Shown: positions 13,570 to 29,158 of the stretch, piece after piece
Position numbering within the stretch: position 1 is the first letter of the stretch
Layout of the letters: every line of letters starts with the position of its first letter
Assembly (NCBI GenBank): GCA_977020255.1
Contig: CDROCS010002180.1
Coordinates: 434,001 to 498,000 of the forward strand
Reading direction: 5' to 3'
DNA from: Obrimoposthia wandeli
Lineage: Eukaryota
Length of the DNA: 64,000 nucleotides
The notes under the pieces: generated by a model
What the model saw: only the letters and a program-made list of their open reading frames with translations
Databases searched by the model: none
Told to the model about the DNA's origin: nothing
Program-made: the position numbers and the translations under genes

Positions 13570-13900
13570 TGTAACATAGATCCTCAGACGGAGGGCCCCA
13601 ACGTGAGTTCTATAGAAGCAGGACTTGTAAATGTTTGTGGCCTACTTGTGTTATGCTTGCCTATCTCAATTTGTATCTGAAGTTTATTTATGGTTAGGTG
13701 TTGTGAAATGTGTGAAGAGCTGTGTATATGAATATTGCAGAATTCCCTTAGTGTGGTGTTGTGTGTAGAGTAGTTAACAACTACTTGCTTGTAAGGGTTC
13801 GGTTTGGTACAATACGGTTTAATGTAGGATATCTTTATTTCTAAACACACGACTTTACGTTTTGACCTGTTCTAAAAACAGCAATACTAATTCTAGTTAT
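13570..13900 (+). mobile_element. 5' part of a putative LTR interrupted by the Polinton (continues 29165-29182)
   Basis: Starts TGTAAC at 13570; beyond the Polinton the sequence resumes and ends CTAACA followed by AG-TGG (PBS-like). Confidence 0.5.
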
Positions 13901-14478
13901 AAGTGTAAAGTGTCGGTTCTAAAACAATAGCACACAAAGCCCTCCCCCTCCCCGAACAAGGAACGAGGAACAAAGCACATCTGGAATTCGCTTAGTCATG
14001 CAGATGTGCTTTGTTCCTCGTTCCTTGTTCGGGGGTGAGGGCTTTGTGTGCTATTGTCTTTGAACCGACACTTTACGTTTTCAATCCTGATTGGTCTTAT
14101 GTGTCATTTACAATTATGTAGGTTAATATTCTGTAACATTAAGTATATAGTTCAAAAATTTAAAAATTTAAAAAATTTTAATTCAAAATTAAAAAATTAA
14201 ATATGGAAATTAAAAAATTAAATATGGAAATTAAAAAATTAAATATGGAAATTAAAAAATTAAAATTTTAATTCAAAAATTAAATATGAAAATTAAAACA
14301 TTAAAATTTTAAAAATAACATTTTGAAATTAAACACAATTGACCGTCCCAAATTTTTATTTGCAACTATTTAATTTACTTAGTACGGCAACCTCATTCCA
14401 GGAGTTAGACTGCCCCGCATAACCGGACAGCTATCGCAGTTTTTATCTTAAGAAACGTTATTGTTTATAGTAGGAGTT
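13901..14478 (+). repeat. left TIR of Polinton, with terminal hairpin 13905-14076 and A-rich tandem array ~14150-14320
   Basis: Reverse complement of ~28562-29154 with scattered mismatches; lacks the terminal AGAG. Confidence 0.92.
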
Positions 14479-14533
14479 TATATTTATATAATGAAGAAAG
14501 CAAAGTAACATCGATAAATATATATTAGTACAA

Positions 14534-15187
14534 TTATAAGCGAACTTGTCCATCAGTAATTTTCCAGATTGGTTTATGAAGACCTGTACAGTTGATTTTG
14601 TATCCCTGTATTGAAATGACGATCATCCATTTGAGTCCAGTTTCCATATTGTCAACATTAAAGTCGTGATCTCGCTTGAAAAGATTAGGATCAGCTCGAA
14701 TTATTATATGATTCCCAACTATAATGTTGAGATGCATCGACGCGAAAGTTGTGTTAAGATCATCAATATCTGATGGATTTAATCTATGTATCTTGAAATC
14801 GTATTTTGACTTATTCAGAGCCACCGGAAACATGAATCCATATATGATTGGAGTCTTCAAAAAATTCATTTGCCAGTTATAAAACATAACCGGCTTGGTT
14901 TACTTCAAATCGTTAGACTCAAATATTACACCTGATGGTCTATTGTTGATGAACGGTTTCTTATGTTTGAGTGTAGAAACTATATCATCAATAAAGAGAT
15001 CCTCATTTGTTGCTTGCTTCTCAATCTTGATAGTCTTGGATAGTTTGTTGTTGTTGCTTGTCATAGTTTGCTTCTTTGGTTTTGATATAAAAACTACATC
15101 ATCATCATCGGTATCCACATCTGTGTCTGTAAGCCTTGTTGTTGGTGACTTCTCGAACTTAAGAGATTTAGTTTGTTTAGAGTTCAT
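14534..15187 (-). pseudogene. Polinton leftward gene (~217 aa): acidic/Lys-rich N-terminus plus globular C-terminal domain, one in-frame TAA
   Basis: ORFs 14900-15187 and 14534-14887 share a frame and are separated only by TAA at 14900-14902 (..ESNDLK*TKPVMFY..). Confidence 0.7.
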
Positions 15188-15189
15188 AT

Positions 15190-15313
15190 CAAAATAATGA
15201 ATTCTATACCAAAAGTGGTAGCTTATATATATATCATCATACTCGATTCTGATTGGATAATCTTTAGCTTAAAAATTTTATATATAGATTGGGTTATTTC
15301 CATTAATTCAATC
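15190..15313. promoter_or_regulatory. divergent promoter between leftward gene and TBP-like gene
   Basis: TATATATA runs at ~15224-15233 and ~15279-15286, each ~35-45 nt from an ATG; ATTGGATAAT at 15252-15261 and a second ATTGG at ~15288. Confidence 0.55.
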
Positions 15314-15806
15314 ATGAATCTTGCAAATATTAATTATAAAGGTAAAGTTAAAGGAGACATCAGTCACTTACCCTACAAAGCCGGGAAACCATGTCAGTAC
15401 GTGCACAGGTGTAAGGATTATACCCTTATAATCTTCCGTTCAGGTATGTTTTTATGTTAGTTAGTTAGTTAGTTAATTATTAGGAGCATGCATGATAATG
15501 GGTTGCAAGAAACCTATTACTACAACTATGCTCAAGTGTCCATTTAGAATAAAGATTGATCGTATTCAATCAGTAACGGTTACTGTCGATTTAGGTAAGA
15601 AGGTGAACCTATACAAGTTGTCTCAAAAGTGTGGAGCTGCATGCATGTTCGAACCTGAGTTGTTTCCTGCTTTGAGGTTTACAAAACACAATCTTCTGTG
15701 CGTCAACATATTTGCAAGCGGGAAAGTGGTCATACTCGGTCTCAAGGATTTGGATTATAACTTTGATGTGACTTTGATAATAACTGATATTTTACTTTTG
15801 ATATAA
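15314..15806 (+). CDS. TATA-box-binding protein (TBP)-like protein, 150 aa, join(15314-15443,15484-15806)
   Basis: Spliced product has both TBP repeats: TLIIFRSGACMIMGCK (cf. TALIFSSGKMVCTGAK) and FEPELFPAL...VNIFASGKVVILGLK (cf. YEPELFPGL...LIFVSGKVVLTGAK); the 40-bp GTATGT...TTAG intron restores the frame. Confidence 0.92.
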
Positions 15807-15848
15807 ACAATAAATTTTAGTTGAATTTTTATTCTTACATGATTTGAA

Positions 15849-16748
15849 ATGCTAGTTGATTATATACTTCATTATACAACTGTTGATGATGTTTTAGTTA
15901 GACGAAAAGTAGGTTATTCTAGAATGAAAGTTTTACACTGGAAATATAGACGTGAAAGTGAAAGATTAAGATCATTAATTATAAATTTTAAAGGGAAACA
16001 ATCTGTAAATGATTTAGCTAAAGCCGGATTTTATAAACATGATGATGATTCAACCGATAAAGTAAAATGTATATACTGCCAAGGTGCGTTATCCGAATGG
16101 GAATGGTATCTTAAACCAATGAAGCAACATATGAAATTTTTTCCTACATGTCCATTTCTTTTAAAGTTAAATGTTTCAAATGGACCAATAATTGAAACTA
16201 TGGACAAGAAAATCGATTTTGATACATCACCATTGATTGGAAAAGTACATGTATCAGATATTGATATAAAATTACCTGATATATGCTATTCAAAATGTTT
16301 AGGACCCTATAATGAGGCTAATGTTATTGAGAAAATCGAAACAGATTGTATAATTGAATATCCTTTGACTATTGAGAAATTCGATATGTTGATGGATACA
16401 AACCAAATCAGATATTTGAAAAGGTTTTTCACAAAAGATAGAATAAAATCTGTTTTAAAATATAAAATGATACGATATGGTGAATACAATTCACTATTTG
16501 AATTGCTTTGTGATTTATCTAATTTAGAAATGAAACCTGAAAAACAATATATAAATATACTTTCATACATTTTAAAGGAACCCGAATGTGTAGTATGTTT
16601 AAATAATCATATTGAAGTAGTATTTCTCCCTTGTGGACATGTAAATACATGTATATCATGTTCTAGAATGTTACATTCATGTCCAGTATGCAGATGTCTG
16701 ATCGAACGGAGAGTAAGAAATGTAAAATTTCATGGTATAAACAATTGA
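15849..16748 (+). CDS. iap: inhibitor of apoptosis (IAP): one BIR domain plus C-terminal RING, 299 aa, intact
   Basis: BIR: LAKAGFY..DKVKCIYCQGALSEW..PMKQHMKFFPTCPF; RING: CVVCLNNHIEVVFLPCGHVNTCISCSRMLHSCPVCR. Confidence 0.95.
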   Translation: MLVDYILHYTTVDDVLVRRKVGYSRMKVLHWKYRRESERLRSLIINFKGKQSVNDLAKAGFYKHDDDSTDKVKCIYCQGALSEWEWYLKPMKQHMKFFPTCPFLLKLNVSNGPIIETMDKKIDFDTSPLIGKVHVSDIDIKLPDICYSKCLGPYNEANVIEKIETDCIIEYPLTIEKFDMLMDTNQIRYLKRFFTKDRIKSVLKYKMIRYGEYNSLFELLCDLSNLEMKPEKQYINILSYILKEPECVVCLNNHIEVVFLPCGHVNTCISCSRMLHSCPVCRCLIERRVRNVKFHGINN

Positions 16749-16766
16749 AATTTATGATTTATATAA

Positions 16767-17033
16767 ATGGATGAAAACAATAAATTAGTTGATGATGCAG
16801 TCGAGGAAATTATAAACGGAACAATAAATGGAGTTCAATACTTTTCTAGTTTTGATGGACTTTCTCGTAATAATATAAAGGAAATTGTTTGCACCCATGT
16901 CTATAGAGATATCAAACGGATAAAGGATTTTGAAATATTCGTTCAAATTAATCGTTCAAACATGATGTATATAACCTTTTCTGCGTCAATTTTTAATTCT
17001 CTGTTGTTGTATATATTAATAAAACGTATATAA
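16767..17033 (+). CDS. hypothetical Polinton protein, 88 aa
   Basis: ATG-initiated ORF filling the gap between IAP and ATPase; TATAAACAAT 31 nt upstream. Confidence 0.6.
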   Translation: MDENNKLVDDAVEEIINGTINGVQYFSSFDGLSRNNIKEIVCTHVYRDIKRIKDFEIFVQINRSNMMYITFSASIFNSLLLYILIKRI

Positions 17034-17063
17034 ACAATCGTTTCTTTTGATTTATTATTATTG

Positions 17064-17711
17064 ATGATGATAAAACTTAAAAATAACGCGGTTTACCAAA
17101 TAGTAGGACCTAGTGGGAGTGGGAAAACACATTTTGTAACTAAATTACTTCAAAATAAAAACATGTTTGATCAAAAGTTTGGTAGAATATACTGGCATTA
17201 CGGAGGTGTAGGTGAATCTGGTCTAACACGAACAGAATTAGGTAAATTGAAGGGTATTCATTTTATTAATGGTTTTGATAATAAATGGTCTGAGAGGTTA
17301 AATTCAGGAGATGTCATTGTAATTGATGACTTGTATGATGAAGCGAATAAAGAGTCGGGTTTTAATAACCTGTTTACCAAAATAGCTAGACATATAAATG
17401 TAACAGTGATTTTTATCACTCAAAATCTCTTTCATCAAGGCGGTCAACACCGTACTCGGAATTTAAATGTACATTATCTAGTATTATTTAAAAATCCGCG
17501 AGATCAAACGGTTATCGACTTTGTTGCCCGTCAAGCTTTCCCTTGCAATAAGCAATATTTGATTGACGCATTTCAAGATGCTACAACTAACCCTCATGGA
17601 TACTTGTTTTTAGATTTTACACAGGAATGTCCAGACGATTTACGCGTGAGAACCGATATTTTCAATAATGATTTTGTATATAAACAAAAGAAAAGCCTAT
17701 CTACTTGTTAA
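17064..17711 (+). CDS. FtsK/A32-like genome packaging ATPase
   Basis: Walker A GPSGSGKT, Walker B VIVIDD, ARH..VTVIFITQNLF, Polinton-typical HGYLFLDF; intact. Confidence 0.95.
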   Translation: MMIKLKNNAVYQIVGPSGSGKTHFVTKLLQNKNMFDQKFGRIYWHYGGVGESGLTRTELGKLKGIHFINGFDNKWSERLNSGDVIVIDDLYDEANKESGFNNLFTKIARHINVTVIFITQNLFHQGGQHRTRNLNVHYLVLFKNPRDQTVIDFVARQAFPCNKQYLIDAFQDATTNPHGYLFLDFTQECPDDLRVRTDIFNNDFVYKQKKSLSTC

Positions 17712-17713
17712 TC

Positions 17714-18025
17714 ATGTCATTTATGAAAGAAACAATGCCTAGTGGAGTTGGACCTAAATGGAGACCGGGTGATAAATTACACGCTAATGATAACAAATTG
17801 ATGCTAAAGAAGAATGCTCATATTAAAAATCTTATTAAATCAGTGCTTCATCAGCGTAAAGTAGTCGATGAATCATTAAAGAAATCGGTAAAGACAGTAA
17901 AGAGAAAACCTGTAAAAAAGAAACCATTAAAGAAGAAACCTGTTAAGAAAGCAGTTGGAAAGTCGGTTAAGAAGTCGGATAAAAAGCGTGTAAATAAACT
18001 AGTTGGTAAATGGATTAAACTATAA
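17714..18025 (+). CDS. Lys-rich basic protein, putative DNA-condensing core protein
   Basis: KRKPVKKKPLKKKPVKKAVGKSVKKSDKK tract; lies in the virion module; function is inference. Confidence 0.7.
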   Translation: MSFMKETMPSGVGPKWRPGDKLHANDNKLMLKKNAHIKNLIKSVLHQRKVVDESLKKSVKTVKRKPVKKKPLKKKPVKKAVGKSVKKSDKKRVNKLVGKWIKL

Positions 18026-18056
18026 ACAATATTGCAAATAGTTTAATTCATTAAAT

Positions 18057-18385
18057 ATGTTATCAAAATCTATACTTCCCTACTTTCAGGCTTTAATCAA
18101 GGCTCCAAGCATATATAGACCACGTATACTCAAGTCATTTCCACCCTTTGTTATTGATAAGTTGGTTGAAGTTTTGTTTAATATTACAAAAGGTACTGTA
18201 AAAATCGGTAATCATAAACATAACCTTAGAAAACATCAAAAAGCTTTACTTGATTTAGTGAATACTAAAAGTAAAACTGGTAAACGTAGAGTAATTCTAA
18301 AACAAAAAGGTGGTTTTATCGGTGCATTAATACCTATAATTGCTATTTAGTATCTCCTTTGATTGCAAAATTGATAAACTCATAA
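18057..18385 (+). CDS. conserved Polinton small virion protein with QKGG|F motif and hydrophobic C-terminal helix (apparent 1-nt frameshift near 18346)
   Basis: ..KRRVILKQKGGFIGALIPIIA; shifted frame continues LVSPLIAKLINS* to 18385. Confidence 0.75.
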
Positions 18386-18436
18386 ACAAAATGGGTAATA
18401 ACATACCAAACATCGATTTTAAATTCACTTGTTGCA

Positions 18437-19458
18437 ATGGAAACGATATGGTACGATCCCGAAAACCCAGCTGGGTACAGCAGCATTACAAAAGTCAATC
18501 GAGTCAAAAGAAAACTCAGAAATGGCTGAGCAATCAGCTAGCATACAGTCTAAATAAGCCAATGAAGCGGAAGTTCCCGACTCGAGCATACAGAACAAGC
18601 GGTCCTAACGATTTATGGCAGGCCGATTTGATGGAAATGATACCATATGCAAGTATCAATGACGGTAACAAGTATATTTTAACATGTATTGACGTGTTTA
18701 CAAGGTATGCGCGTGCATTACCTGTAAAATCTAAATCAGGTAAGGATATAGAGGCTGCTCTAAGTATAATGATTGATAAAACTGTCCCCATACATGTGCA
18801 AACCGATAAGGGTAAAGAGTTTTACAACAAAAATGTAGGTAGTTTATTAAAAAAATTAAATATTGAACATTACTCTGTAGTTTCACAATTCAAAGCTGCC
18901 CTAGTTGAAAGGTTTAATAGAACATTGAGAGATCGATTAAAAATACATTTTATTGCACAAGGCAATAAAAGATGGGTTGACGTTTTACCAAAAGTAATGA
19001 CTTCATACAATCACAGTAAGCATAGAGGTTTAGACGGATTGAGACCTGTCGATATTAATGATAAAAATGCAATGGAAATTTGGTTGAGTCGTAATCAAGT
19101 CGATAAAGTTAATAAACCCAAACATAAGACTGGTGATTATGTTCGGATATCAAAGTTTAGTGGTAGCCCCTTTATTAAAAACTTTGATCCGAATTGGAGT
19201 GATGAAGTGTTTAGGATAGAGAAAATAGACAAACGTGCAAATCCTGTAATGTACTCTATAGTTGATGATGACTGTAATGTAATAACAGGGAAATTTTATG
19301 AACCTGAATTACAAGTAATTGATAAACCTACACTTTTCCGTATCCAATAAGTCGTAAAATCTAAAGGCGGTGGTAAGAATAAACAATATCTCGTAAAGTG
19401 GCATGGATATTCTGAATCAACATGGATCAAAGCAAGCCAGATAGAGACTTCTATATGA
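18437..19458 (+). pseudogene. retroviral-like (c-int) DDE integrase with C-terminal chromodomain; frameshift ~18495 and premature TAA 19348-19350
   Basis: METIWYDPENPAGYSS N-terminus in another frame; DDE triad WQADL / QTDKG / VERFNRTL; after the stop VVKSKGGGKNKQYLVKWHGYSESTWI (chromodomain). Confidence 0.93.
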
Positions 19459-20585
19459 TTTTACCGAGTAATAGTTGTCCGAAAACTCAACCTAATAATA
19501 TGGCTTCATTATTCACTGTAGATTGGGAGAATCCAATTACGTTAAATGGTAAATGGGAGGCGGCATTAACTGAATTTACGTATACAAACACTCCTGTTAT
19601 TTTAAATAAGGGCAGTGAAATTAATTATTCTATTAAATTCTCCAATCAACAGACTGATCAAATATCTTTATCAGTAATTCATACTCAAGTAGAAGTAGAA
19701 AAGAAAGAACCGCAATTGCATGGTGATAAATCAGAACCAAAAGTTATTAAAAAGACAATTAATAAAATATCAAAACTCACCGTCACGTCTAAAGATAAGA
19801 TTGCAAAGCTTTCTATTTCCTTAATCACAGTTGGTGTAGGTATTGATAAAAAGGATAATGTTGTACTAATAAAATCCGTCAACAACAAAAAATTATATAT
19901 CAAGATGGATGCTGACGCTAAAAATGAATTAGGATTCATTTTCAATACATTAACTTCAGAAAGTTTCGAGTCTGATGATAAAGGAGTTTTACAAGGATCA
20001 ACATCTATCAGACCTGATTGCAGTGCACATAATTTACAATATATGCATTATAAAACCGGTTCATACAACAAGAAAACTGTATTTACAGAAGATTTAAATA
20101 ATAATAATGTAAATGCATTAGTAGCATACATTAAATCTAAATGCGACGTTATATTTAAAAGATTTTATATGGATGATAATGATAAGCTAATAAAATTTGT
20201 ATTAAAGAATGGAATTGAGCATATTGGATTTGATCAACGTTTAATGCATGTATTAGGGTTAGATAAATCACGATTTACGGGCAACGGGTCAGGTAAACCT
20301 CGATTAAATTACGAGTTTGATCACATGTATTCTAGTCTGTGTGAACCTGTAAACGTTGGAGGTCAAATGATACCCTTATTAAAATCTATATGGTTAGATA
20401 AAAATAAAGCACCAGGAGACACGGTTAATATCGCAATATACAGACCCATGTATATCCCTTTAGCATCAAATGTAATCTCAAACATTGAAATTAATATTAG
20501 AAACGATGCAGGTGTTCCAATAAGTTTTTCCAACAATGCAAAAGTATCCCTTACCATACATGTCCGTTGTATAGATCAGGTATAA
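19422..20585 (+). CDS. minor capsid protein (penton), intact, 387 aa
   Basis: Polinton-typical N-terminus DFYMILPSNS..NNMASLFTVDWENPITLNGKWEAALTEFTY and C-terminal MYIPL..IEINIRNDAG..VSLTIH. Confidence 0.88.
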   Translation: MDQSKPDRDFYMILPSNSCPKTQPNNMASLFTVDWENPITLNGKWEAALTEFTYTNTPVILNKGSEINYSIKFSNQQTDQISLSVIHTQVEVEKKEPQLHGDKSEPKVIKKTINKISKLTVTSKDKIAKLSISLITVGVGIDKKDNVVLIKSVNNKKLYIKMDADAKNELGFIFNTLTSESFESDDKGVLQGSTSIRPDCSAHNLQYMHYKTGSYNKKTVFTEDLNNNNVNALVAYIKSKCDVIFKRFYMDDNDKLIKFVLKNGIEHIGFDQRLMHVLGLDKSRFTGNGSGKPRLNYEFDHMYSSLCEPVNVGGQMIPLLKSIWLDKNKAPGDTVNIAIYRPMYIPLASNVISNIEINIRNDAGVPISFSNNAKVSLTIHVRCIDQV

Positions 20586-20621
20586 ACAATCTGTATTCAA
20601 AAATAGTTGTGCATTACAGTT

Positions 20622-21028
20622 ATGAATATAATTGAGACATTTAGTGGGCCTCAACAAGGTGGTGAATTACCATATTTTGTAGGTAAACAGTACGGTTCGG
20701 GATGGTTGAAAACATTGGGGCGGTTAGCATTCCCTATACTGAAAAGATTAGGCCGTGTTGGAGTTAAAACAGTTCAAGATGTAATAATGAACAACAAATC
20801 TGTGTTACCAATGCTTAAACAACATGCACTAGGGAAGTTGCCGGAGCCATACCGGAGGCTAAGGAAGCTTTTGGTACAGTTGTTAAAATTATTAAAAATC
20901 GACGTAAACGTAAAGCAAGTGAAGCAGCACAAATGGTTGAACCCGAAACTAAAAAGCAAGAGGGTAGTGGTAGAAAGAAAGCATCTAATATAAACAAACG
21001 AAGAAAACAAGGTACAATATTTGCTTAA
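20622..21028 (+). CDS. Polinton core/cement protein with QQGG and QYGSG motifs and amphipathic helix (pVI-like by inference); frameshift ~20832
   Basis: GPQQGGELPYFVGKQYGSGWLKTLGRLAFPILKRLG; shifted frame gives ..KQEGSGRKK..KRRKQGTIFA* ending just before the hexon ATG. Confidence 0.78.
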
Positions 21029-21030
21029 TA

Positions 21031-22253
21031 ATGGCTTGTGGTAAATCTGAATTATGTATTTTTGATCGAGCTTTGCCTCAGGTAGTTGTAAATAATGGTA
21101 GCTTTGAAGATATATATCCAACAAACAATATTACCGGAACAAGAACATCAGAGATTCTGTTTAAAATCCAAGGTTCAGATATTGAGAACTTAGATTTGAA
21201 TGATACCTTGTTGTTTGTGAAAATTAAAGTAACGAAAACTGATGGTACAGATATAGCTGTTACAGATTATGTGGTCCCATCAAATTTCTTGATGCATTCC
21301 CTATTTAAAAGCATAGATATATCAATGAATAATACTGTAGTAGAAACCCATCCTCAATATGCACAAAAAGCTATGATTGAAACCATACTAAACTATAGCA
21401 CAGACACTAAAGACACTTGTTTGTCGAGTATAGGTTATGATGATACTGAAGATAATCGTAAAGGTTGGGCTGATCGCTCAAAAGAAATTGACTTGTGTGG
21501 GACTCTTCGATCTGATATTTTTGAGCAACCAAAGTATCTCTTACCTGGTGTGTCTATCATGGTAAGACTTGTACCTAATAAATCTATGTTTAGTCTGAAC
21601 TACGGAACGACTCCATCGCGAATCATATTTATTGAAGCTAAACTTAAAGTCAGAAGAGTCAGAGTTGAGAATGATGTTTTAATGGGACATAATATTGGTC
21701 TTGAATCTAGGAATGCTGTATATCCCTATACTCGCACAAAGCTAATGTATCATACCTTAGCCATCGGTTCTACGAGTTTTTACAAGGATCAAGTGTTTGA
21801 TGATGAACAATTGCCTAAATTTGTGTTGATTACGTTGCAAGCAGGTGAAAAACTTATCGGTAATGGTGCTACAGACTCTTCAACATTCGATCATTCTAAT
21901 GTTAACACTATCAGTCTTGCTAGAAACAGTGATTTTAACGAATCTTACAGTACAAACTTTGAAACAGGTGAAACCACCTTTGCATATGTCCAATCTATCA
22001 TTAGAAATATGGGTAATTTGGATAAGAATATAAACAATGGCGTATCACTGGATGAATTCAAAACCAAATATCCATTTTCACGTTTGTTTTAGCCCCTGAC
22101 TTTGATATCACGCAAAACCAATTAGCAAAACAGGGTAATTTACGCCTTGACATCAAGTTTCACAAGTCATTAACAGTCCCAACAAACGTACTGATTTAAG
22201 GGATTTTTGATTCTGAGTTTGAAATAACTAAAGGCCGACGTGTGATTGTATGA
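21031..22253 (+). pseudogene. double jelly-roll major capsid protein (hexon); frameshift ~22078 and in-frame TAA near 22198
   Basis: MACGKSELCIF..LDLNDTLLFVKIKV, SDIFEQPKYLLPGV; shifted frame completes FTFVLAPDF..QGNLRLDIKF..VLI*GIFDSEFEITKGRRVIV*. Confidence 0.92.
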
Positions 22254-22610
22254 AGTGAGTTTTTTAATTTATGTTTTAAGATTTTATTAACAACAAGTAC
22301 TGTTCAGGTGAATGAAATAACTAGTTTGCTGCTCGGACCGCGATTTAAGGGTGTATACCCGTTGGAAATAATCCTAACATTAACGCCTGGTGGATATATT
22401 GTCAATACACATACCTCAAATCTTACTGGAGACCACTGGATTGCGTTATTCGTGAGACGGAATTCTGTACATGTGTATGACCCTCTTGGAGTATACTATC
22501 CGGGAAAACTTATCAAGCATGTAGAGTCTCAAGGAAAACATGTATATTACAACAAAATTCGTTCTCAAAACCCACTGACTACTAATTGCGGTCCACTATG
22601 TATCTTATAA
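22250..22610 (+). CDS. adenain-like cysteine protease, join(22250-22254,22298-22610)
   Basis: Catalytic H (GDHW), D (YDPLG), Q/C (SQ..TTNCG); a 43-bp GTGAGT...TTAAC..AAG intron gives MNTVQVNEI; ATG overlaps the hexon stop (ATGA); TAA at 22610 may be premature. Confidence 0.88.
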
Positions 22611-23100
22611 TTGTATGATCAAACTATATAAATGTCAAACATTTTAATTTGTGTTGATTGGTAATAAAATTTGTATTCAAAATCGTATTTGTTTTATAAA
22701 TAGCTTCAACTACCCAGTCGAAATTTTAAAAAATTTGAGTTTTGATAAATTAAAAAATAGATTTAAAATCTACTAATTAAGAGAAAATTAATGGTGTGAA
22801 TTATTTTTAAAAATTCATAGTCTAACGGTATGAATATCGGTTATGAAAAATATCATAATTGATTGACCGTAATTAACCTTTATGATAACGTGTGTAGCAA
22901 CTAGGGAATAAAGGGTCTTTATGACACATTCCTAGTTTGTAATAATGAAAGTACACACGTGTGTGTGTGCATCTAGGGCAGAAACTACACTGACTGTGAA
23001 CCATATATAAACAATCAGTGTAGATGCATTCATCAATTTTATCACAATTATCAAAAGTAAGTATTTTGATTTTATTTTAATTTTATTATTTTTTTTTTAG

Positions 23101-23472
23101 ATGTCGAAAATTATTTTCGCGTACAATGCTAAGAAAAGATGGACGATGAAGCCTGTAGTCGATATGGATGATGATGATGTCGACTTGGATGCGACACCAC
23201 AACAAAAAGGTAATTTTTTGATTAGTATTTTTAATTTAATTTTCATTTAGCAATGCCCAGTGTCACAACACCACCAATATCGATTGCGCCATGGATACCA
23301 ACAATATATGATGATGATGCTACTAGGAAAAGAAGGAAACAAAAGAAGCCGAAAACCTCTGATGATGATGATGATGCTACTAGGAAAAGAAGGAAACAAA
23401 AGAAGCCGACAATTTCTGATGATGATGATGATAATAAGAAAAATCCAAAAGTTTTTTTATCTTCTAAGAAAT
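23101..23472 (+). CDS. spliced Polinton gene, join(23101-23209,23251->23472), with acidic/basic 19-aa repeats; runs into the gap; upstream intron 23057-23100
   Basis: GTAAGT..TTAG and GTAATT..TTAG introns keep frame; DDDATRKRRKQKKP(K/T) repeated with 57-bp period. Confidence 0.7.
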
Positions 23473-24010
23473 NNNNNNNNNNNNNNNNNNNNNNNNNNNN
23501 NNNNNNNNNNNNNNNNNNNNNNNNNNNNNNNNNNNNNNNNNNNNNNNNNNNNNNNNNNNNNNNNNNNNNNNNNNNNNNNNNNNNNNNNNNNNNNNNNNNN
23601 NNNNNNNNNNNNNNNNNNNNNNNNNNNNNNNNNNNNNNNNNNNNNNNNNNNNNNNNNNNNNNNNNNNNNNNNNNNNNNNNNNNNNNNNNNNNNNNNNNNN
23701 NNNNNNNNNNNNNNNNNNNNNNNNNNNNNNNNNNNNNNNNNNNNNNNNNNNNNNNNNNNNNNNNNNNNNNNNNNNNNNNNNNNNNNNNNNNNNNNNNNNN
23801 NNNNNNNNNNNNNNNNNNNNNNNNNNNNNNNNNNNNNNNNNNNNNNNNNNNNNNNNNNNNNNNNNNNNNNNNNNNNNNNNNNNNNNNNNNNNNNNNNNNN
23901 NNNNNNNNNNNNNNNNNNNNNNNNNNNNNNNNNNNNNNNNNNNNNNNNNNNNNNNNNNNNNNNNNNNNNNNNNNNNNNNNNNNNNNNNNNNNNNNNNNNN
24001 NNNNNNNNNN
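23473..24010. other. assembly gap (538 N)
   Basis: Run of N. Confidence 1.
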
Positions 24011-24070
24011 ATTCTAATTATTTAAATAAACGTTTTGGGGATATAAATGATATAAAATCAAATTCTCCCG

Positions 24071-24132
24071 ACTGCCATAGCTGCCCGGTAACGCGGGGCA
24101 GTCTAACTCCTGGAATGGGGTCGCATAGTAAG
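24071..24132 (+). promoter_or_regulatory. internal copy of a ~62-bp GC-rich TIR cassette, 29 nt downstream of a TATA-like box
   Basis: Aligns with 28600-28662 and the reverse complement of ~14378-14440; TATAAATG at 24042. Confidence 0.75.
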
Positions 24133-24330
24133 TTAACTAAATCAAGAAGTTACCTCTTACTTTTTAAACCAGGGACACCTGTTGGGTCACCTGTTAATTC
24201 GTTAGAAAATTTCAATGTAAATGAGATATACTCGGGTTTTGAAAATATCCCGTTTAAAAAATATTTTAATCAACTAAAGAAAGTTAAAAATCAAAATATT
24301 GATTTAAGTAAACTGAAAACAGAAGGTAAG

Positions 24331-24621
24331 ATGGGTAAACGATTTCGTCAGAAGCTGCGTAGATTGAGAAAACAACCAGCAGGTATAACAATATTTGCAA
24401 ATTTATTAGGGTCTTGCAAACCCATTAATATTAGTCCAGGTCTGAAAATTACAGATCTGGCAAATAAATTATATGAAGTCTTCGGGACTGACCAAATTTA
24501 TTTTTATCGTAATGGCATGCCCTTTGAAGGGGAAGCTACTATTGGCAATGTTTTACATGAGGGGGCTATTATCCATGTATACCCTAAACTTCGTGGAGGA
24601 AGTAACTTATGTACATTGTAA
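24331..24621 (+). CDS. ubiquitin-like domain ending LRGG (24589-24600), in frame with downstream pPolB
   Basis: ITIFANLLGSCKPINISPGLKITDLANKLYEVFGTDQIYFYRNGMPFEGEATIGNVLHEGAIIHVYPKLRGG aligns by eye with ubiquitin; true start uncertain because the frame is open back to the gap. Confidence 0.8.
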   Translation: MGKRFRQKLRRLRKQPAGITIFANLLGSCKPINISPGLKITDLANKLYEVFGTDQIYFYRNGMPFEGEATIGNVLHEGAIIHVYPKLRGGSNLCTL

Positions 24622-27600
24622 AAGTATTGCATAAACGTTAATCATGGAATAGAATGTCATAGTGTAATGCTTAAATATTATAAATTTAAAAGCGGTTTTA
24701 TTTGTCCACATTGTGATGTGTTATATTGTATTGTCTATCAAACATTTTATAATGATCATAAGGATCATCTGACGTATTTTAAATCTAAAAAGTCGGCATA
24801 CAAACGTAAAGTAATGAGTGTACCAACAATAGACAACAATAAAATAACAAAAACTAATAATTTTGATGAAGAGTTTGATGTGGTAGACTCGTGGGAACCG
24901 GATAGTGTTGTAGAAATTGATACTAATCCTGAAGTTGTAGAAATTATTGAGCCTTTAACCCCTAATGACATCTTAAATAATAATAATATTGATGAACTTA
25001 TAGATCAGGACGAGTTTATAACAGAAAATGATTTTTTCGACTCGCTCCTAGCTATTACGGATGATGACTTTGATAATATTGTTACAATTAATTCAGATAA
25101 TACATTAACTTTTAACAATCAAATAGGAGGTGCAATTCAATCAAACCTTGTTTTTGATGTTAGTGGGTTAAACATGCTTAAACTATACATTAACGATACT
25201 ATGCTAACTGAACTTACTATCAGTATAGATGTGTTTGGTCCCTGTAAAATACAGTTTGGTGTTGAAACCGAATTTGTCAATAATGAGGGTCAGCATAAAA
25301 CATGGCATGTAAGCTGTAAAGCAAATATTTTTGAACAAGATTTTATCACTACAAGAACAGTTGAGCTCAACAATAAAATTGAAATTTATAAGGATATGAG
25401 TTCGGGATGGTCAGTATTTAAAATTCTGTTGGTATCCTTTAAATTTACTGCACTTTAAAACGTAGCAGGATCATCATTTATAAAAACCCCGGTTGCGCTT
25501 GCTAAAACACTATCTATAGTGAACGTAAATAATACTGATGATCAGTGTTTTAAATACGCTGTTCTCAGTATCTTACACTATAAAGATTTCAATCGAACAG
25601 ACAAAGAGTTGAAAACTATAATGAATATTTAAATGAACTAATATGCGAGCTTGGTTCTATGAGGATAGACTGCATCAAGGTGTTTGAAAAACTCAATAAT
25701 TTTGCGATAACAGTATTTTCCTATAAACCTACAAAGGTAAAGCCTCATAGTAGTCATCTAGTGTTTAAAAACCTAGATGTTAACGTTATTTATAGAACGA
25801 GTCTTAGGCAGTGCAAAAAAGTAGTAAACTTGTTGCTGTTGAAACAGAGCGGTAATTATCACTATACAGGGAATACAAAACTGAATAGACTTTTATATAC
25901 TCAAAAATATAATGTGCGTCTCTTTTCGGTTTTCGAACCACGATTTCATATGACAAACACAGGGCACATTGTAATATTAATACAGATTTAACAACCTTGT
26001 TTACAATGCCTAAAGATATCAAGTGTCAGTTTTCCGACTATTCTAAATCTATTGCGCCACCATTTGTTGTATATGCCGACTTTGAGTCAATACTCGAGCC
26101 GCATAATACTTTCAAACACATTCATAAACCAATATCTATAGGGATGATTTTGAAAAACAACACTAATAATTCAATACAATATTTTAGTTATTACGGTCTG
26201 CAGTGTGCTAAAAACTTTGTAGATAAATTAACTGAGTTGATAAATGGTGAAGTGGCAGATTTTTGGGTAAATAGTATTAATGTTCCTATGGTTTTTATTA
26301 ATAATGACATGTTGAACTTTAGAGATTGCACTAATTGCTATCTTTGTAGAAAATTAAACGATCGTATGGTTAGAGATCATGATCATATCACGGGTAAATA
26401 CTTGGGTGCGGCATGCAACAAATGCAATTTAAGTCGCAAGTTTGCAAAGAGACCAGTTTTACCTGTGGTGTTTCATAACCTTATGGGTTATGATATACAT
26501 CTTATTCTAAAATATGCTGACTTGAAAGGTAAATACTTTTCAATTATCCCTAAATCAAGTGAAACGTTCATGTCCCTCCGTATAGAGATGAAGAGGGGGA
26601 CATTGAAATTCATTGATTCATACCTTTTTACAACGTCAAGTCTTGAATCCTTAGTTTCATACTTGTCAAGTTGTCCTTATACTACACAATACCTAAACCC
26701 TAATATTGCAACAAGTAAGGCGGTATTTCCATATGAATATATTAGTGGTGTTGATAGGCTTGTGGAGAGGCAGTTACCTGCTAAATCTGAGTTTCCTTCT
26801 CGAGTCACTGATCAACAATATAATGAAGCCCTAATGATGTGGCCGTATTAGGGTGTAATACTATTAAAGACTACATGCTTGAGTATATGAAACTTGAGGT
26901 GTACCTGTTATGTGATGTTTTTGAGGCCTTCAGACAGAAAGTAAGGGATGATGATAATCTAGAGGCGCTCAATTTTTTTAGTATCCCGGTCTCAGTTGGG
27001 CTAGCGCATTAAAAACGTTAGAGTATGACGTGGATTTATTGCATGATCCCGAAATGTATAACATGTTTGAGGCAGGGATACGGGGAGAGATGACTTTCAT
27101 CAAAAAACATTACGTTAAAACAACAGATGAAACATTCCTCCTATACATTGACATAAACAACCTATATGGCTGGGCCATGAGTCAACCGTTACCACATACA
27201 GATTTTACATGGGTATATGACGGTTTTGAAGCGATAATTGAGCTTATAACTGAGAGGGATATTCACGGTAATATGCAGGACTTAAGTCTTAAAGAACATG
27301 GATACTTGATGGAAATTGATTTACACATACCCATCAGTATTCATGATAAACGTGATGACTTACCGATTGCGCCTAATAGAGAAATCCCTCCCGGCTCAAA
27401 AGCTTCAAAGCTGTTGATGACCCATGAGGATAAAAATAATTACATCATACACTCACAACTACTACAATTTTACTTGTTTCTGGGCACAGAAATTAAACAA
27501 GTGCATAGAGCAATAAAGTTTCATCAAGCTCCTATATTTAAAACATATATTTATATCAATAGCCGGAAACGGCATGTAGATAAAGATGTTCTCTTAAAAC

Positions 27601-28094
27601 AAATGATTAAAGATCAAAGGTTAGATACTAGTAATTACCCGCTCACACATGAGTTATTTAACGATACTCATCGAAATGTTATTGGAAAGTTTAAAGATGA
27701 AAGCAAAAGGACAGTGCTTTATGATGAATGGGTATTTCTGAAACCTAAATGCTACTCATTGAAAACCAGTATGAGGGCTAAGGGTATCTCCCTTAAACAA
27801 ACCGAAATCAGACATGAGCATTACATCAAGTGTTATGTTGATGATGAAATTATAACTGCCGGTCAGACACGTATTTTATCTCGTAATCATCAATTATTTA
27901 CAATGTATAATTATAAAATTGCGTTAAGGTGTTATGACGATAAAAGGGTTTGGATTGAGAAAATCAAATCCGTCGCATATGGACACTATAGTCTAAGACA
28001 GGTGTATAAAATCTGGGGTAACCTCTTGAAAGTATTGACTTATATCCTTCTTATTTTTATTGTAATAAGCAGAATATTGTATGTATCTTTTTAA
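24622..28094 (+). pseudogene. polB: protein-primed family B DNA polymerase (terminal-protein region, OTU-like segment, exonuclease, EndoVII-like insert, polymerase); fragmented, motifs B and C deleted
   Basis: SSGWS, NTDDQCFKYAV, VVYADFESIL (ExoI), RDHDHITGKYLGAACNKCN, FHNLMGYD (ExoII), YIDINNLYGWAM (motif A), IGKFKDE, DDKR..AYGHY; several stops and frameshifts. Confidence 0.95.
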
Positions 28095-28211
28095 ATGCGA
28101 TAGTATGTATATATTTTTAATGCTATAGTATGTATATATTTTTATTGATGTTTATTATTATTAATACATTGTATGTATCATAACCATGTCTTGACTTCCT
28201 ACTAGCTACTC

Positions 28212-28270
28212 ATTGGATAATTTCGTTGGATAATTTCATTGGATAATTTTAACAAATTCTCTATAAATAT
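28212..28270 (+). promoter_or_regulatory. three 13-bp repeats containing TTGGATAATTT followed by TATAAATA
   Basis: TTGGATAATTT at 28213, 28226 and 28239; TATAAATA at 28262, 42 nt before ATG 28304. Confidence 0.65.
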
Positions 28271-28303
28271 ATACACACTTCAACCAATTTCTTATTATTT
28301 CAA

Positions 28304-28543
28304 ATGACTATTTTTAAATAAAAATTACAAGCTCTCCATGATAACCTGAGCCCTACCTTGATGGCACAGTATACTGAAAAATACTTAAACTTATTTGTTG
28401 CACCAGAACATTTTGTCTCAAGGATTGAAGAACTTTATATGTATCATCTGTTTAACGGAGACTTTAAACCTAAAGTTGCAACAATCATTAAAATAGAAGA
28501 AGAAGAAAGCATGGATTGTGTTAATGAATATAATTATGTATAA
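28304..28543 (+). pseudogene. small Polinton ORF (~79 codons) with TAA at codon 6
   Basis: ATG 28304 is in frame with ORF 28358-28543; preceded by a TATA box. Confidence 0.45.
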
Positions 28544-28561
28544 ACATAGACTTTTTTACTA

Positions 28562-29158
28562 GACTCCTAATATAAACAAAAACGTTTTTAAAGATAAAAA
28601 CTGCGATAGCTTTCCGGTTATGCAGGGCAGTCTAACTCCTGGAATGAGGTCGCAGTACTAAGTAAATTAAATAGTTGCAAATAAAAAGTTGGGACAGTCA
28701 ATTGGGTTTAATTTCAAATGTTTAATTTTTTAATTTAAAATTTTTAAATTGTAATTCTTAAATTGTGAATTCTAAATTAAAATTTTTTAATTTAATTTTT
28801 AATTTCTAAATTTTTTAATCTAGTTTTTTAATTTCTAAATGTTTTATAATTTAAATTTAATTTTTAATTTCTAAATATTTTTTTTTTATTTTCTAAATTT
28901 TTAATTTTTGAACTATATACTTAATGCTTACATAATATTAACCTACATAATTGTAAATGACACATAAGACCAATCAGGATTGAAAACGTAAAGTGTCGGT
29001 TCAAAAACAATAGCACACAAAGCCCTCCCCCCGAACAAGGAACGAGGAACAAAGCACATCTGAATGACTAAGCGAATTCCAGATGTGCTTTGTTCCTTGT
29101 TCCTTGTTCGGGGGGCTTAGTATGCTATTGTTTTAGAACCGACACTTTACACTTCTCT
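28562..29158 (-). repeat. right TIR of Polinton with terminal hairpin 28988-29150
   Basis: Reverse complement of the left TIR; ends CTCT followed by TSD AGTTAT. Confidence 0.92.

Follow-up and report, generated by a model that had tools for sequence, protein, structure and literature searches.

The closest described parallel to the system considered here is the TBP mimic of the beta- and gammaherpesviruses (KSHV ORF24, EBV BcRF1 and HCMV UL87), a virus-encoded protein with the TBP fold that works with host Pol II; early genes have host-type promoters and the genes of the particle carry a variant TATA box (PMC12529657). As described there, ORF24 is large, binds Pol II directly, acts within a six-member complex and lacks the glutamates that contact TFIIB. 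The giant viruses (Nucleocytoviricota) also encode proteins of the TBP fold whose N lobe has diverged, such as B263R of ASFV, mostly together with a viral TFIIB and with diverged stirrup glutamates (PMC7221094). A TBP gene in an element related to ours is already in print, labelled in a figure on MELD viruses and related elements and not discussed (Starrett et al. 2021, PMC8502044, on adintoviruses/MELD viruses). The word 'promoter' is absent from the main text of that paper, which carries no promoter analysis.

Here we describe a Polinton of Obrimoposthia wandeli, located in a 64,000-nt stretch of DNA (the window), that encodes a mini-TBP and carries an 8-bp box, (T/C)ATAAAC(A/G), before its packaging and capsid genes. 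The protein shares the saddle fold, three of four intercalating phenylalanines and the C-lobe stirrup with cellular TBP/TRF (PF00352) and the engineered TBPm3, but both N-lobe helices are absent, one phenylalanine is lost, the DNA face bears polar residues and the family forms a separate branch. In contrast to ORF24 it has only ~150 aa, keeps the TFIIB glutamates and has no partners identified; unlike in the giant viruses these glutamates are nearly invariant, and no TFIIB was found among the element ORFs scanned. Its best BFVD matches are of the giant-virus TBP kind, at 8–19% identity. The initial annotation had drawn the comparison with the herpesviruses, and this holds as a functional analogy only, in which the box genes would be expressed late, as the herpesvirus ones are after DNA replication. 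It does not extend to homology of the system: the box is YATAAACR rather than TATTWAA, structural matches to BcRF1 and U58 are weak (E 2e-3 to 5e-3), and there is neither a protein of ORF24 size with a Pol II-binding N-terminal domain nor its five partners (none of the element ORFs scanned matched a Pfam family of this kind). We think it probable that this ~150-aa TBP derivative binds the box in place of host TBP, turning on the packaging and capsid genes late.

The Polinton copy and its mini-TBP gene

The window contains a whole Polinton/Maverick copy of 15.3 kb (13899–29156, no strand assigned), delimited by its target-site duplication, the arms of its terminal inverted repeats (TIRs) and Pfam matches. 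The 6-bp duplication CTAGTT flanks it on both sides, and the TIRs (13899–14480 and 28560–29156, likewise unstranded) each have a terminal hairpin, giving the combination by which Polintons/Mavericks are recognized. The gene set also conforms, with protein-primed PolB, retroviral-type integrase, A32-like ATPase, capsid and protease. Pfam matches are to PF03175, PF00665, PF04665 and, weakly, Capsid_N, and the protease was assigned by homology to a Peptidase_C5 ORF of sister copies. The copy is decayed, with interruptions in the genes for integrase, major capsid, protease and PolB. PolB, which has an endonuclease-VII domain, is present as several broken pieces identified by Pfam (24667–28094, + strand) with no conserved box upstream. 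The element belongs to a very large family in the O. wandeli genome, where all 40 matches scored (from 1509 candidates) stand at 98–100%.

The mini-TBP gene lies on the + strand. Exon 1 (15314–15443) encodes the N-terminal lobe without its helices and in alignment matches the N-terminal part of homologues that have no intron, while exon 2 (15484–15806) encodes the end of the N lobe and the complete C lobe (Pfam PF00352, E 1e-12). Between them a 40-nt GT-AG intron (15444–15483) is predicted from its pattern and from the intronless homologues, which align continuously over the exon junction. The pattern is matched in 10 of 12 family copies, that of the window included, with introns of 39–45 nt and a constant exon 1. 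Contigs from four runs, all from a single sample whose library type is unrecorded, gave no intron joint among the 15 of 88 matches listed, which is not evidence on expression. The gene had been annotated as encoding a spliced, intact TBP-like protein; the + strand gene, its Pfam match and its open frame agree with this, the splicing is predicted, and 'intact' must be qualified in that the frame departs from the family at two nearly invariant positions.

The promoter of this gene is of host type by sequence match (15252–15286, + strand). As originally reported, it has a canonical TATA and a CCAAT/GATA-like motif; the former is TATATATA at −35, the latter comprises ATTGG (inverted CCAAT) at 15252 and GATAA at 15256. 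For the divergent partner gene (− strand) the corresponding sequence, at −42, is TATATAAG. CCAAT is found upstream of 13 of 43 TBP genes, and canonical TATA upstream of 23.

On the − strand, an ORF at 14534–14887 encodes a predicted single-stranded DNA binding protein (SSB) of the T7 gp2.5/Enc34 type, judged by the fold of its model (pLDDT 90). The model matches gp2.5-type SSBs (VIA) with Z of 7.0–7.1 and rmsd of 2.8–3.0 over 102–105 residues, the next unrelated row scoring Z 5.3. Such a gene often adjoins the TBP gene, with 22 homologous ORFs across metagenome loci. The idea that it might be a partner of the TBP was dropped, given the match of its fold to gp2.5-type SSBs.

Fold and conserved residues of the mini-TBP

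The databases hold 75 homologues of the protein, mostly of ~150 aa, the full-length ones being unsplit. Evidence for the fold comes from a model of one of these, P0009. The P0009 model (pLDDT 96.6) and Foldseek comparison reveal the two-lobed saddle of the TBP family; all the PDB matches listed at E ≤ 0.001 are TBPs, and superposition on the cellular TBP saddle gives TM values of 0.71–0.77. Before residue 82 there is no helix of four or more residues. The N-lobe helix is therefore absent from the model, and with it the basic H2 surface whose residues are described as binding TFIIA, TAF1, Mot1 and Brf1/2 (PMC7221094).

Three of the four intercalating phenylalanines are kept (in 56, 58 and 58 of 58 homologues) and the other is replaced in 56 of 58, the N-lobe positions having been mapped by eye. 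Both glutamates of the C-lobe stirrup are retained (55 and 58 of 58), so that by sequence the acidic stirrup for TFIIB/TFB is present, with binding itself predicted. Polar residues lie on the DNA face, and the positions that correspond to I194, V203 and L205 of yeast TBP are fixed as other residues in 56, 58 and 58 of the 58. This anatomy agrees with a changed DNA specificity. The same three residues are the specificity positions of TBPm3 (PMC1636458). A point against is that in TBPm3 they touch base pair 2, and that it is base pair 7 at which the box deviates.

In a quick tree of 96 columns, which cannot name the donor, the family separates from the cellular TBPs (SH-aLRT 95). No TFIIB was found among the element ORFs scanned, a search that a very diverged copy could escape; 538 nt of the element are N. 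A genome search for TFIIB gave only 12 matches. Five of these were read and proved to be exons of host type, the TFIIB repeat of the host being divided between exons.

Distribution of the YATAAACR box

Between the TIRs, TATAAACAA occurs nine times on the + strand of the element against 0.4–1.1 expected (Markov orders 1–4). The whole window has 14 matches, compared with a shuffle mean of 3.85, and 14 was reached in 0 of 100 shuffles. Seven copies lie 47, 31, 35, 35, 36, 41 and 42 nt upstream of the ATGs at 15849, 16767, 17064, 17714, 18057, 20622 and 21031, respectively, and when nine sites were placed at random, a site preceded at least six of nine ATGs in 0 of 200,000 trials. Copies, distances and random placement thus agree in sustaining the first observation made on this DNA, a repeated box 31–47 nt upstream of seven ATGs. 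The trailing A(T) originally included is not conserved across the family and has been removed, leaving the 8-bp YATAAACR, typically 33–44 nt upstream of the ATG with a peak at 33–37 nt.

The seven sites are all on the + strand. The first (15802–15809) overlaps the TBP stop codon and precedes a BIR-RING IAP gene (15849–16748); it is followed by those before an 88-aa ORF (16767–17033; box 16736–16743) and the packaging ATPase (17064–17711; box 17029–17036). The fourth (17679–17686) falls within the 3′ end of the ATPase, in the codons YKQ, and stands before a lysine-rich ORF (17714–18025). The remainder stand before a 97-aa ORF with a weak match to adenovirus protein X (18057–18350; box 18021–18028), the ORF at 20622 that is presumably PX-like (box 20581–20588), and the major capsid gene (starting at 21031, its frame broken near 22092; box 20989–20996). 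The box had been described as lying on the virion genes; two of the seven, the BIR-RING IAP and the 88-aa ORF, are not virion genes. Two variants are also on the + strand: CATAAACA (18381–18388), just 10 nt upstream of where the integrase gene, itself broken, has its first ATG, and AATAAACA (19378–19385), within the integrase tail at −44 of a gene (19422–20585) that we take from its position to encode the minor capsid protein. A further + strand box (22029–22036) lies within the major capsid gene ~220 nt upstream of the protease region, and is found at the same place in locus L111. Another (23006–23013, + strand) is intergenic; downstream of it an exon predicted to be non-coding leads into a GT-AG intron of 44 nt (23057–23100), after which comes an ATG at 23101. 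In some cases a box falls on conserved codons (YKQ, NKQY), and protein constraint may help to retain it.

In addition to its place before the IAP gene, the box occurs inside the TIRs. Each TIR has an outward-pointing copy, that on the left (14462–14469, − strand) 29–30 nt before a 57-nt structured element and that on the right (28571–28578, + strand) 29 nt before the same element (28600–28656). Rfam gave no match over the 57-nt element, only sub-threshold hairpin matches, and in a by-eye comparison with ribozyme cores it did not fit a ribozyme.

How general is the box among Polintons? De-duplicated upstream regions were searched for NATAAACR 25–65 nt upstream and for TATAWAWR as the canonical TATA. 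The box is found upstream of 20 of 21 ATPase genes, 10 of 11 homologues of the 97-aa gene, 12 of 15 major capsid genes and 13 of 15 exonuclease-like genes, against 111 of 2313 background windows. Elsewhere it is patchy, at 3/9 for minor capsid/penton, 2/4 for integrase (within 25–65 nt) and 0/4 for protease; it is near 4 of 12 PX genes and ~100 nt upstream in others. The TBP promoter of the window element lacks it, and it precedes 1 of 43 TBP genes against the 23 with canonical TATA, at similar distances. Where the virion module is inverted relative to the TBP gene (L063, L066) the strand of the box follows the module. At least five TBP-bearing families in the O. wandeli genome have the box in common, and it is still present in TBP-bearing loci of GC ≥0.36 (10/22).

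In elements with the mini-TBP, 51 of 76 packaging and virion genes have the box, compared with 0 of 30 in other Polintons (12 loci). The Fisher P of 1e-11 overstates this contrast, since it represents one evolutionary event: in the ATPase tree all the ATPases with mini-TBP and box lie on one side of a single branch (SH-aLRT 91), on which TBP and box both arise. With that reading of the number, the expected co-occurrence of box enrichment with the TBP gene was borne out. The controls are mostly partial contigs of higher GC with hand-picked gene starts, and only one of them is demonstrably complete. A TIR-bounded control (L123) has neither TBP nor box, and the control L119 has an unrelated cellular-like TBP without the box. 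Scanning viral_contigs with ATPase and TBP probes for TBP-less controls found no relatives, and a search of the phage collection gave no match. In the O. wandeli genome itself the hits examined with other probes all came from TBP-bearing families, so there is no within-host control.

Could host TBP, or one of its paralogues, use the box as a core promoter (a weak or tissue-restricted TATA), with the element TBP acting otherwise, for example as a DNA-binding protein in replication or by titrating out TFIIB? The host genome encodes two TBPs as well as TRF-like paralogues, and co-occurrence through a single event is compatible with such a division of roles. Yet C7 is strict in the box while the same elements give the TBP gene and its neighbours canonical TATA, and control Polintons use canonical TATA (5 of 30 genes) and never the box. 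The initial annotation was correct that C at position 7 is non-consensus; it is not unreadable by the host, as wild-type cellular TBP has been crystallised on the C7 = C(−25) variant (title of PDB 1QN3; Hoogsteen geometry, PMC4402545), although the TBPm3 selections disfavour C at positions 5–7 (PMC1636458). A role in replication would suit the frequent adjacency of TBP and SSB genes and the loss of one phenylalanine, a Phe-deficient TBP of Giardia being reported to prefer single-stranded DNA (PMC12209930). However, the same box is present in loci from many metagenomes and in several families and so does not track one host, and overall we regard reading by host TBP as unlikely.

Two further explanations fit poorly. 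The Forkhead consensus is RYAAAYA, and the motif could be a host Forkhead or Sox (AACAAT) site conferring tissue-specific activation. ATAAACA matches this consensus, FoxM1 sites being given as TAAACA (PMC2910063), and AACAAT is present in seven of nine internal exact copies of the window; over 62 sites, however, ATAAACA is found in 50, GTAAACA and the reverse orientation in none and AACAAT in just 15, and the fixed strand and TATA-like distance make this highly improbable. We give equally little credence to the motif being the 3′-end/poly(A) signal for the gene before it, or arising from conserved codons as a side effect of a compact AT-rich genome, despite at least four window copies overlapping a stop codon, TIR copies lying behind terminal genes and YKQ ending most ATPases of the clade, because for 16 of 64 sites no ORF ends in the 150 nt upstream, another 16 are located >12 nt within the upstream ORF and 14 >10 nt past its stop (the SDs, 5 and 50 nt, are only indicative as the search windows differ), the ATPase box is kept behind differing upstream genes, and there is no stop codon close to the 23006 copy.

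A candidate late-promoter switch

We return to the reading that the mini-TBP itself recognizes the box. What the element encodes is likely a late-promoter switch of minimal form, convergent with herpesvirus ORF24 and expected to work through the TFIIB of the host. A switch of this kind had been suggested from the sequence of the window; the suggestion gains from the box, which in many mini-TBP elements stands before the packaging and capsid genes rather than the TBP gene, and from the anatomy of the protein, and is tempered by the single origin of the co-occurrence.

In a first phase, host TFIID and NF-Y would act at canonical TATA/CCAAT promoters to express the genes for TBP, SSB and polymerase. 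Without the N-lobe helices contacted by TFIIA, TAF1, Mot1/BTAF1 and Brf, the mini-TBP would be a free factor outside TFIID. Its rebuilt concave face would prefer the C7 box, which cellular TBP is described as binding only through strained geometry. The mini-TBP is predicted to prefer TATAAACA over TATAAAAG, and C7 should be its preference among TATAAACA, TATAAAAG, CATAAACG and the inverted box. The intact C-lobe glutamates would then recruit host TFIIB and Pol II, host TFIIB being proposed because no element TFIIB was found. The outcome would be an early-to-late cascade.

A bolder proposition, against which we lean slightly, is that in a clade of animal Polintons a single 150-aa TBP, stripped of the surface that host regulators of TBP all need but still able to dock TFIIB and to read a box of its own, alone retargets host Pol II to the virion genes. 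It would then be the smallest known promoter-reprogramming system, and in a genome with thousands of copies it could also activate decayed copies, small RNAs encoded in the TIRs and box-bearing host genes.

These findings bear on the timing of gene expression in Polintons and on a possible virus-like late phase, and the shared box provides a candidate late promoter that can be tested, as well as a means to mark the expression of particle genes. The natural mini-TBP family shows which surfaces of TBP are dispensable and how TATA specificity can be rewired. If the proposal is true, this would be a further independent solution, after the herpesviruses and giant viruses, to redirecting transcription through a viral TBP, and the sole one predicted to work with host TFIIB plus a single small protein.

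The mini-TBP gene and its Polinton

The Polinton at 13899-29156 has TIRs of ~580 nt with terminal hairpins, a TSD of CTAGTT on both flanks, and a gene set comprising PolB with an endonuclease-VII domain, integrase, A32-like ATPase, capsid and protease. It is a decayed copy, interrupted in the integrase, major capsid, protease and PolB genes, and its family is very large within the 1.35-Gb host genome (40/40 scored matches at 98-100%, from 1509 candidates), that of an AT-rich animal with short introns. Near-perfect hairpins of ~170 nt lie just inside both termini (13901-14076 and 28988-29154). Positions 23473-24010 of the window are N.

The gene for the mini-TBP, a small relative of the TATA-binding protein, comprises exon 1 (15314-15443, +) and exon 2 (15484-15806, +), separated by a predicted 40-nt GT-AG intron. 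A search with exon 2 yielded 75 homologues out of 79 candidates, mostly of 144-165 aa with 46-65% identity and a single one at 38%. The predicted splicing is well supported by sequence comparison, because homologues span the exon junction without a break and ten out of twelve copies of the family, that in the window included, show the intron pattern (39-45 nt); nine of those ten retain the 106-codon exon 2. The initial annotation called the protein spliced and intact. The predicted intron and the open frame agree with this, but the window product deviates from its relatives at two sites that hardly vary among them. Next to the TBP gene lies a conserved gene for a predicted SSB of the T7 gp2.5/Enc34 type (14534-14887, -), without a Pfam match.

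Searching 1.84 billion representatives with a profile returned 58 matches at E<=1e-30. A quick C-lobe tree (149 rows, 96 columns) separates the mini-TBP family from cellular TBPs (SH-aLRT 95), which argues that it is an old viral lineage and no recent capture from the Obrimoposthia wandeli host. Longer relatives of 160-180 aa with the same C-lobe signature (proteins P0139-P0214, loci L062 and L066) resemble an intermediate stage from the full to the mini TBP. A metagenome scan gave 63 loci, the weak L071-L073 being excluded, and Polinton genes surround the TBP in those of sufficient length. The host genome holds at least five TBP-bearing Polinton families, one with an intronless TBP. It also has several TBP-family genes of its own (L086-L094), among them two that lie head to head on a single contig and TRF-like paralogues with one exon each.

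The box before packaging and virion genes

TATAAACAA occurs nine times on the + strand within the element, against ~1 expected. As the initial annotation had reported, seven copies lie 31-47 nt upstream of ATGs, an arrangement not approached in 200,000 random placements. They precede the genes for the IAP, the ATPase and the major capsid and four further ORFs (88-aa, lysine-rich, 97-aa and PX-like); the initial annotation's description of these as virion genes does not hold for the IAP and the 88-aa ORF. Box variants are found upstream of the presumed penton and the integrase, and CATAAACG lies 37 nt upstream of the first PolB-region ORF, though it is missing in two sister copies. The mini-TBP gene has TATATATA at -35 plus an inverted CCAAT, in agreement with the canonical TATA and CCAAT originally proposed. 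The BIR-RING IAP gene (15849-16748) has the box in the window copy, and canonical TATATAAG instead in the family of locus L104. The stretches 23057-23250 and 24013-24621 hold a predicted multi-exon gene with 41-44-nt introns and acidic/basic repeats, placed behind the box at 23006, and downstream of it an ORF ending, by eye, in a ubiquitin-like LRGG motif.

The pattern extends to relatives. In de-duplicated upstream regions, where some near-copies remained and a few starts were mis-called, NATAAACR was scored 25-65 nt before the ATPase in 20/21, the 97-aa gene in 10/11, the exonuclease-like gene in 13/15, the major capsid in 12/15, PX in 4/12, penton in 3/9, integrase in 2/4, IAP in 1/2 and protease in 0/4. 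Just 1/43 TBP genes has it, and 23/43 have canonical TATAWAWR. Families without a PX-adjacent box often have one ~100 nt upstream, within the penton gene. Among 65 ATAAAC-centred sites, 54 have T and 9 have C at position 1, 60 have A and 5 have G at position 8, and subsequent positions are variable; the distance to the ATG peaks at 33-37 nt. The box at 17679-17687 falls in the last ATPase codons. Because of this embedding a C-terminal YKQ marks the ATPases of the clade, being present in most of them and missing from canonical Polinton ATPases, and it is usable as a protein-level marker of the mini-TBP clade.

How specific is the box to elements with a mini-TBP? The protein is absent from all 16 control Polinton-type contigs, taken from bacterial genome bins. 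The box precedes 51/76 packaging/virion genes of mini-TBP elements (10/22 in TBP-bearing loci of GC >=0.36), compared with 0/30 hand-picked starts in 12 of the 16 control loci, of which only L123 is TIR-bounded; L122 (a near-copy of L121), L125, L127 and L132 were excluded. Canonical TATA precedes five of the 30. One control, L119, encodes a 177-aa cellular-like two-lobed TBP (2443-2976, -). Its gene is oriented divergently from the capsid gene, lacks the box and may stem from another, independent capture of a TBP. In an ATPase tree (18 rows sought, L110 without a match) a single branch (SH-aLRT 91) sets off all 17 rows with mini-TBP and box. The anticipated co-occurrence of box and TBP is real, but it counts as one evolutionary event.

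A 57-nt GC-rich self-complementary element at 28600-28656 (+), 14384-14440 (-) and 24071-24125 (+) lies 29-30 nt 3' of a box in both TIRs, the third copy being within an ORF. It was found only in copies of the window's Polinton family, a fragment in L108 among them, had no match in Rfam, and has a fold z-score of -2.5 in the right copy only. It may be a small RNA transcribed from the box.

Protein anatomy and proposed reading of the box

An AlphaFold2 model (58 sequences, pLDDT 96.6) was made of P0009, a homologue standing in for the window's own product. The N lobe consists of strands only, and both long helices are in the C lobe. Its 44 PDB matches at E<=0.001 (TM 0.71-0.77) are TBPs throughout, among the matches listed, and the top BFVD matches are giant-virus TBPs of 8-19% identity. 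With a supported C-lobe register and an N-lobe register set by eye, three intercalating Phe are retained and the fourth is replaced in 56/58 sequences, while both stirrup glutamates are kept (55/58 and 58/58). The equivalents of I194, V203 and L205, in yeast TBP numbering, are fixed as different residues in 56, 58 and 58 of the 58. These three are the altered-specificity positions of the engineered TBPm3 (PMC1636458).

The missing N-lobe surface is that contacted by TFIIA, TAF1, Mot1/BTAF1 and Brf1/2 (PMC7221094); the same paper reports that the glutamates are gone from most viral TBPs, which supply their own TFIIB. In contrast, the mini-TBP retains the glutamates, and TFIIB was not found among the scanned element ORFs; the host genome has 12 TFIIB-family matches only.

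Could the box be read instead by host TBP or a TBP paralogue? Several paralogues exist in the host, PDB 1QN3 is by its title a crystal structure of wild-type TBP with a C(-25) variant, and Hoogsteen pairs relieve a clash on the TBP-bound variant (PMC4402545). Yet C7 of the box is strict, canonical TATA is used at the TBP genes of the same elements and in control Polintons, and the mini-TBP has fixed changes on its DNA face. We regard reading by host TBP or a paralogue as the less probable explanation. A Sox site (AACAAT in only 15/62), a poly(A) signal of the upstream gene (position not tied to upstream stop codons) and a Forkhead site (GTAAACA and the reversed site each 0/62) all fit poorly.

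The reading that we consider probable is a cascade served by the mini-TBP. Transcription of the genes for the TBP, the SSB and the polymerase would fall first to host factors; free mini-TBP would bind YATAAACR and, once bound, would recruit host TFIIB and Pol II to drive the packaging module. The data show the protein's anatomy and the promoter pattern, from which we infer binding, use of TFIIB and timing of expression. The system would be functionally like that of ORF24, the herpesvirus TBP mimic of TATT late promoters (PMC12529657), though it falls outside that system by the membership tests.

In the accessible text of Starrett et al. (PMC8502044, bioRxiv 10.1101/697771) a TBP gene is labelled in a figure legend without discussion, and TBP, TATA and promoter are absent from the main text of Krupovic et al. 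(10.1101/2024.03.18.585575). We found no description of the box or cascade in the accessible Polinton, adintovirus and TATA-box literature, that is, outside subscription journals, Repbase and some supplements. The mini-TBP and its box are real and conserved. Viral TBPs that have a promoter box to themselves are already known in kind; what is unusual is that a single small protein is involved, predicted to use the TFIIB of its host.
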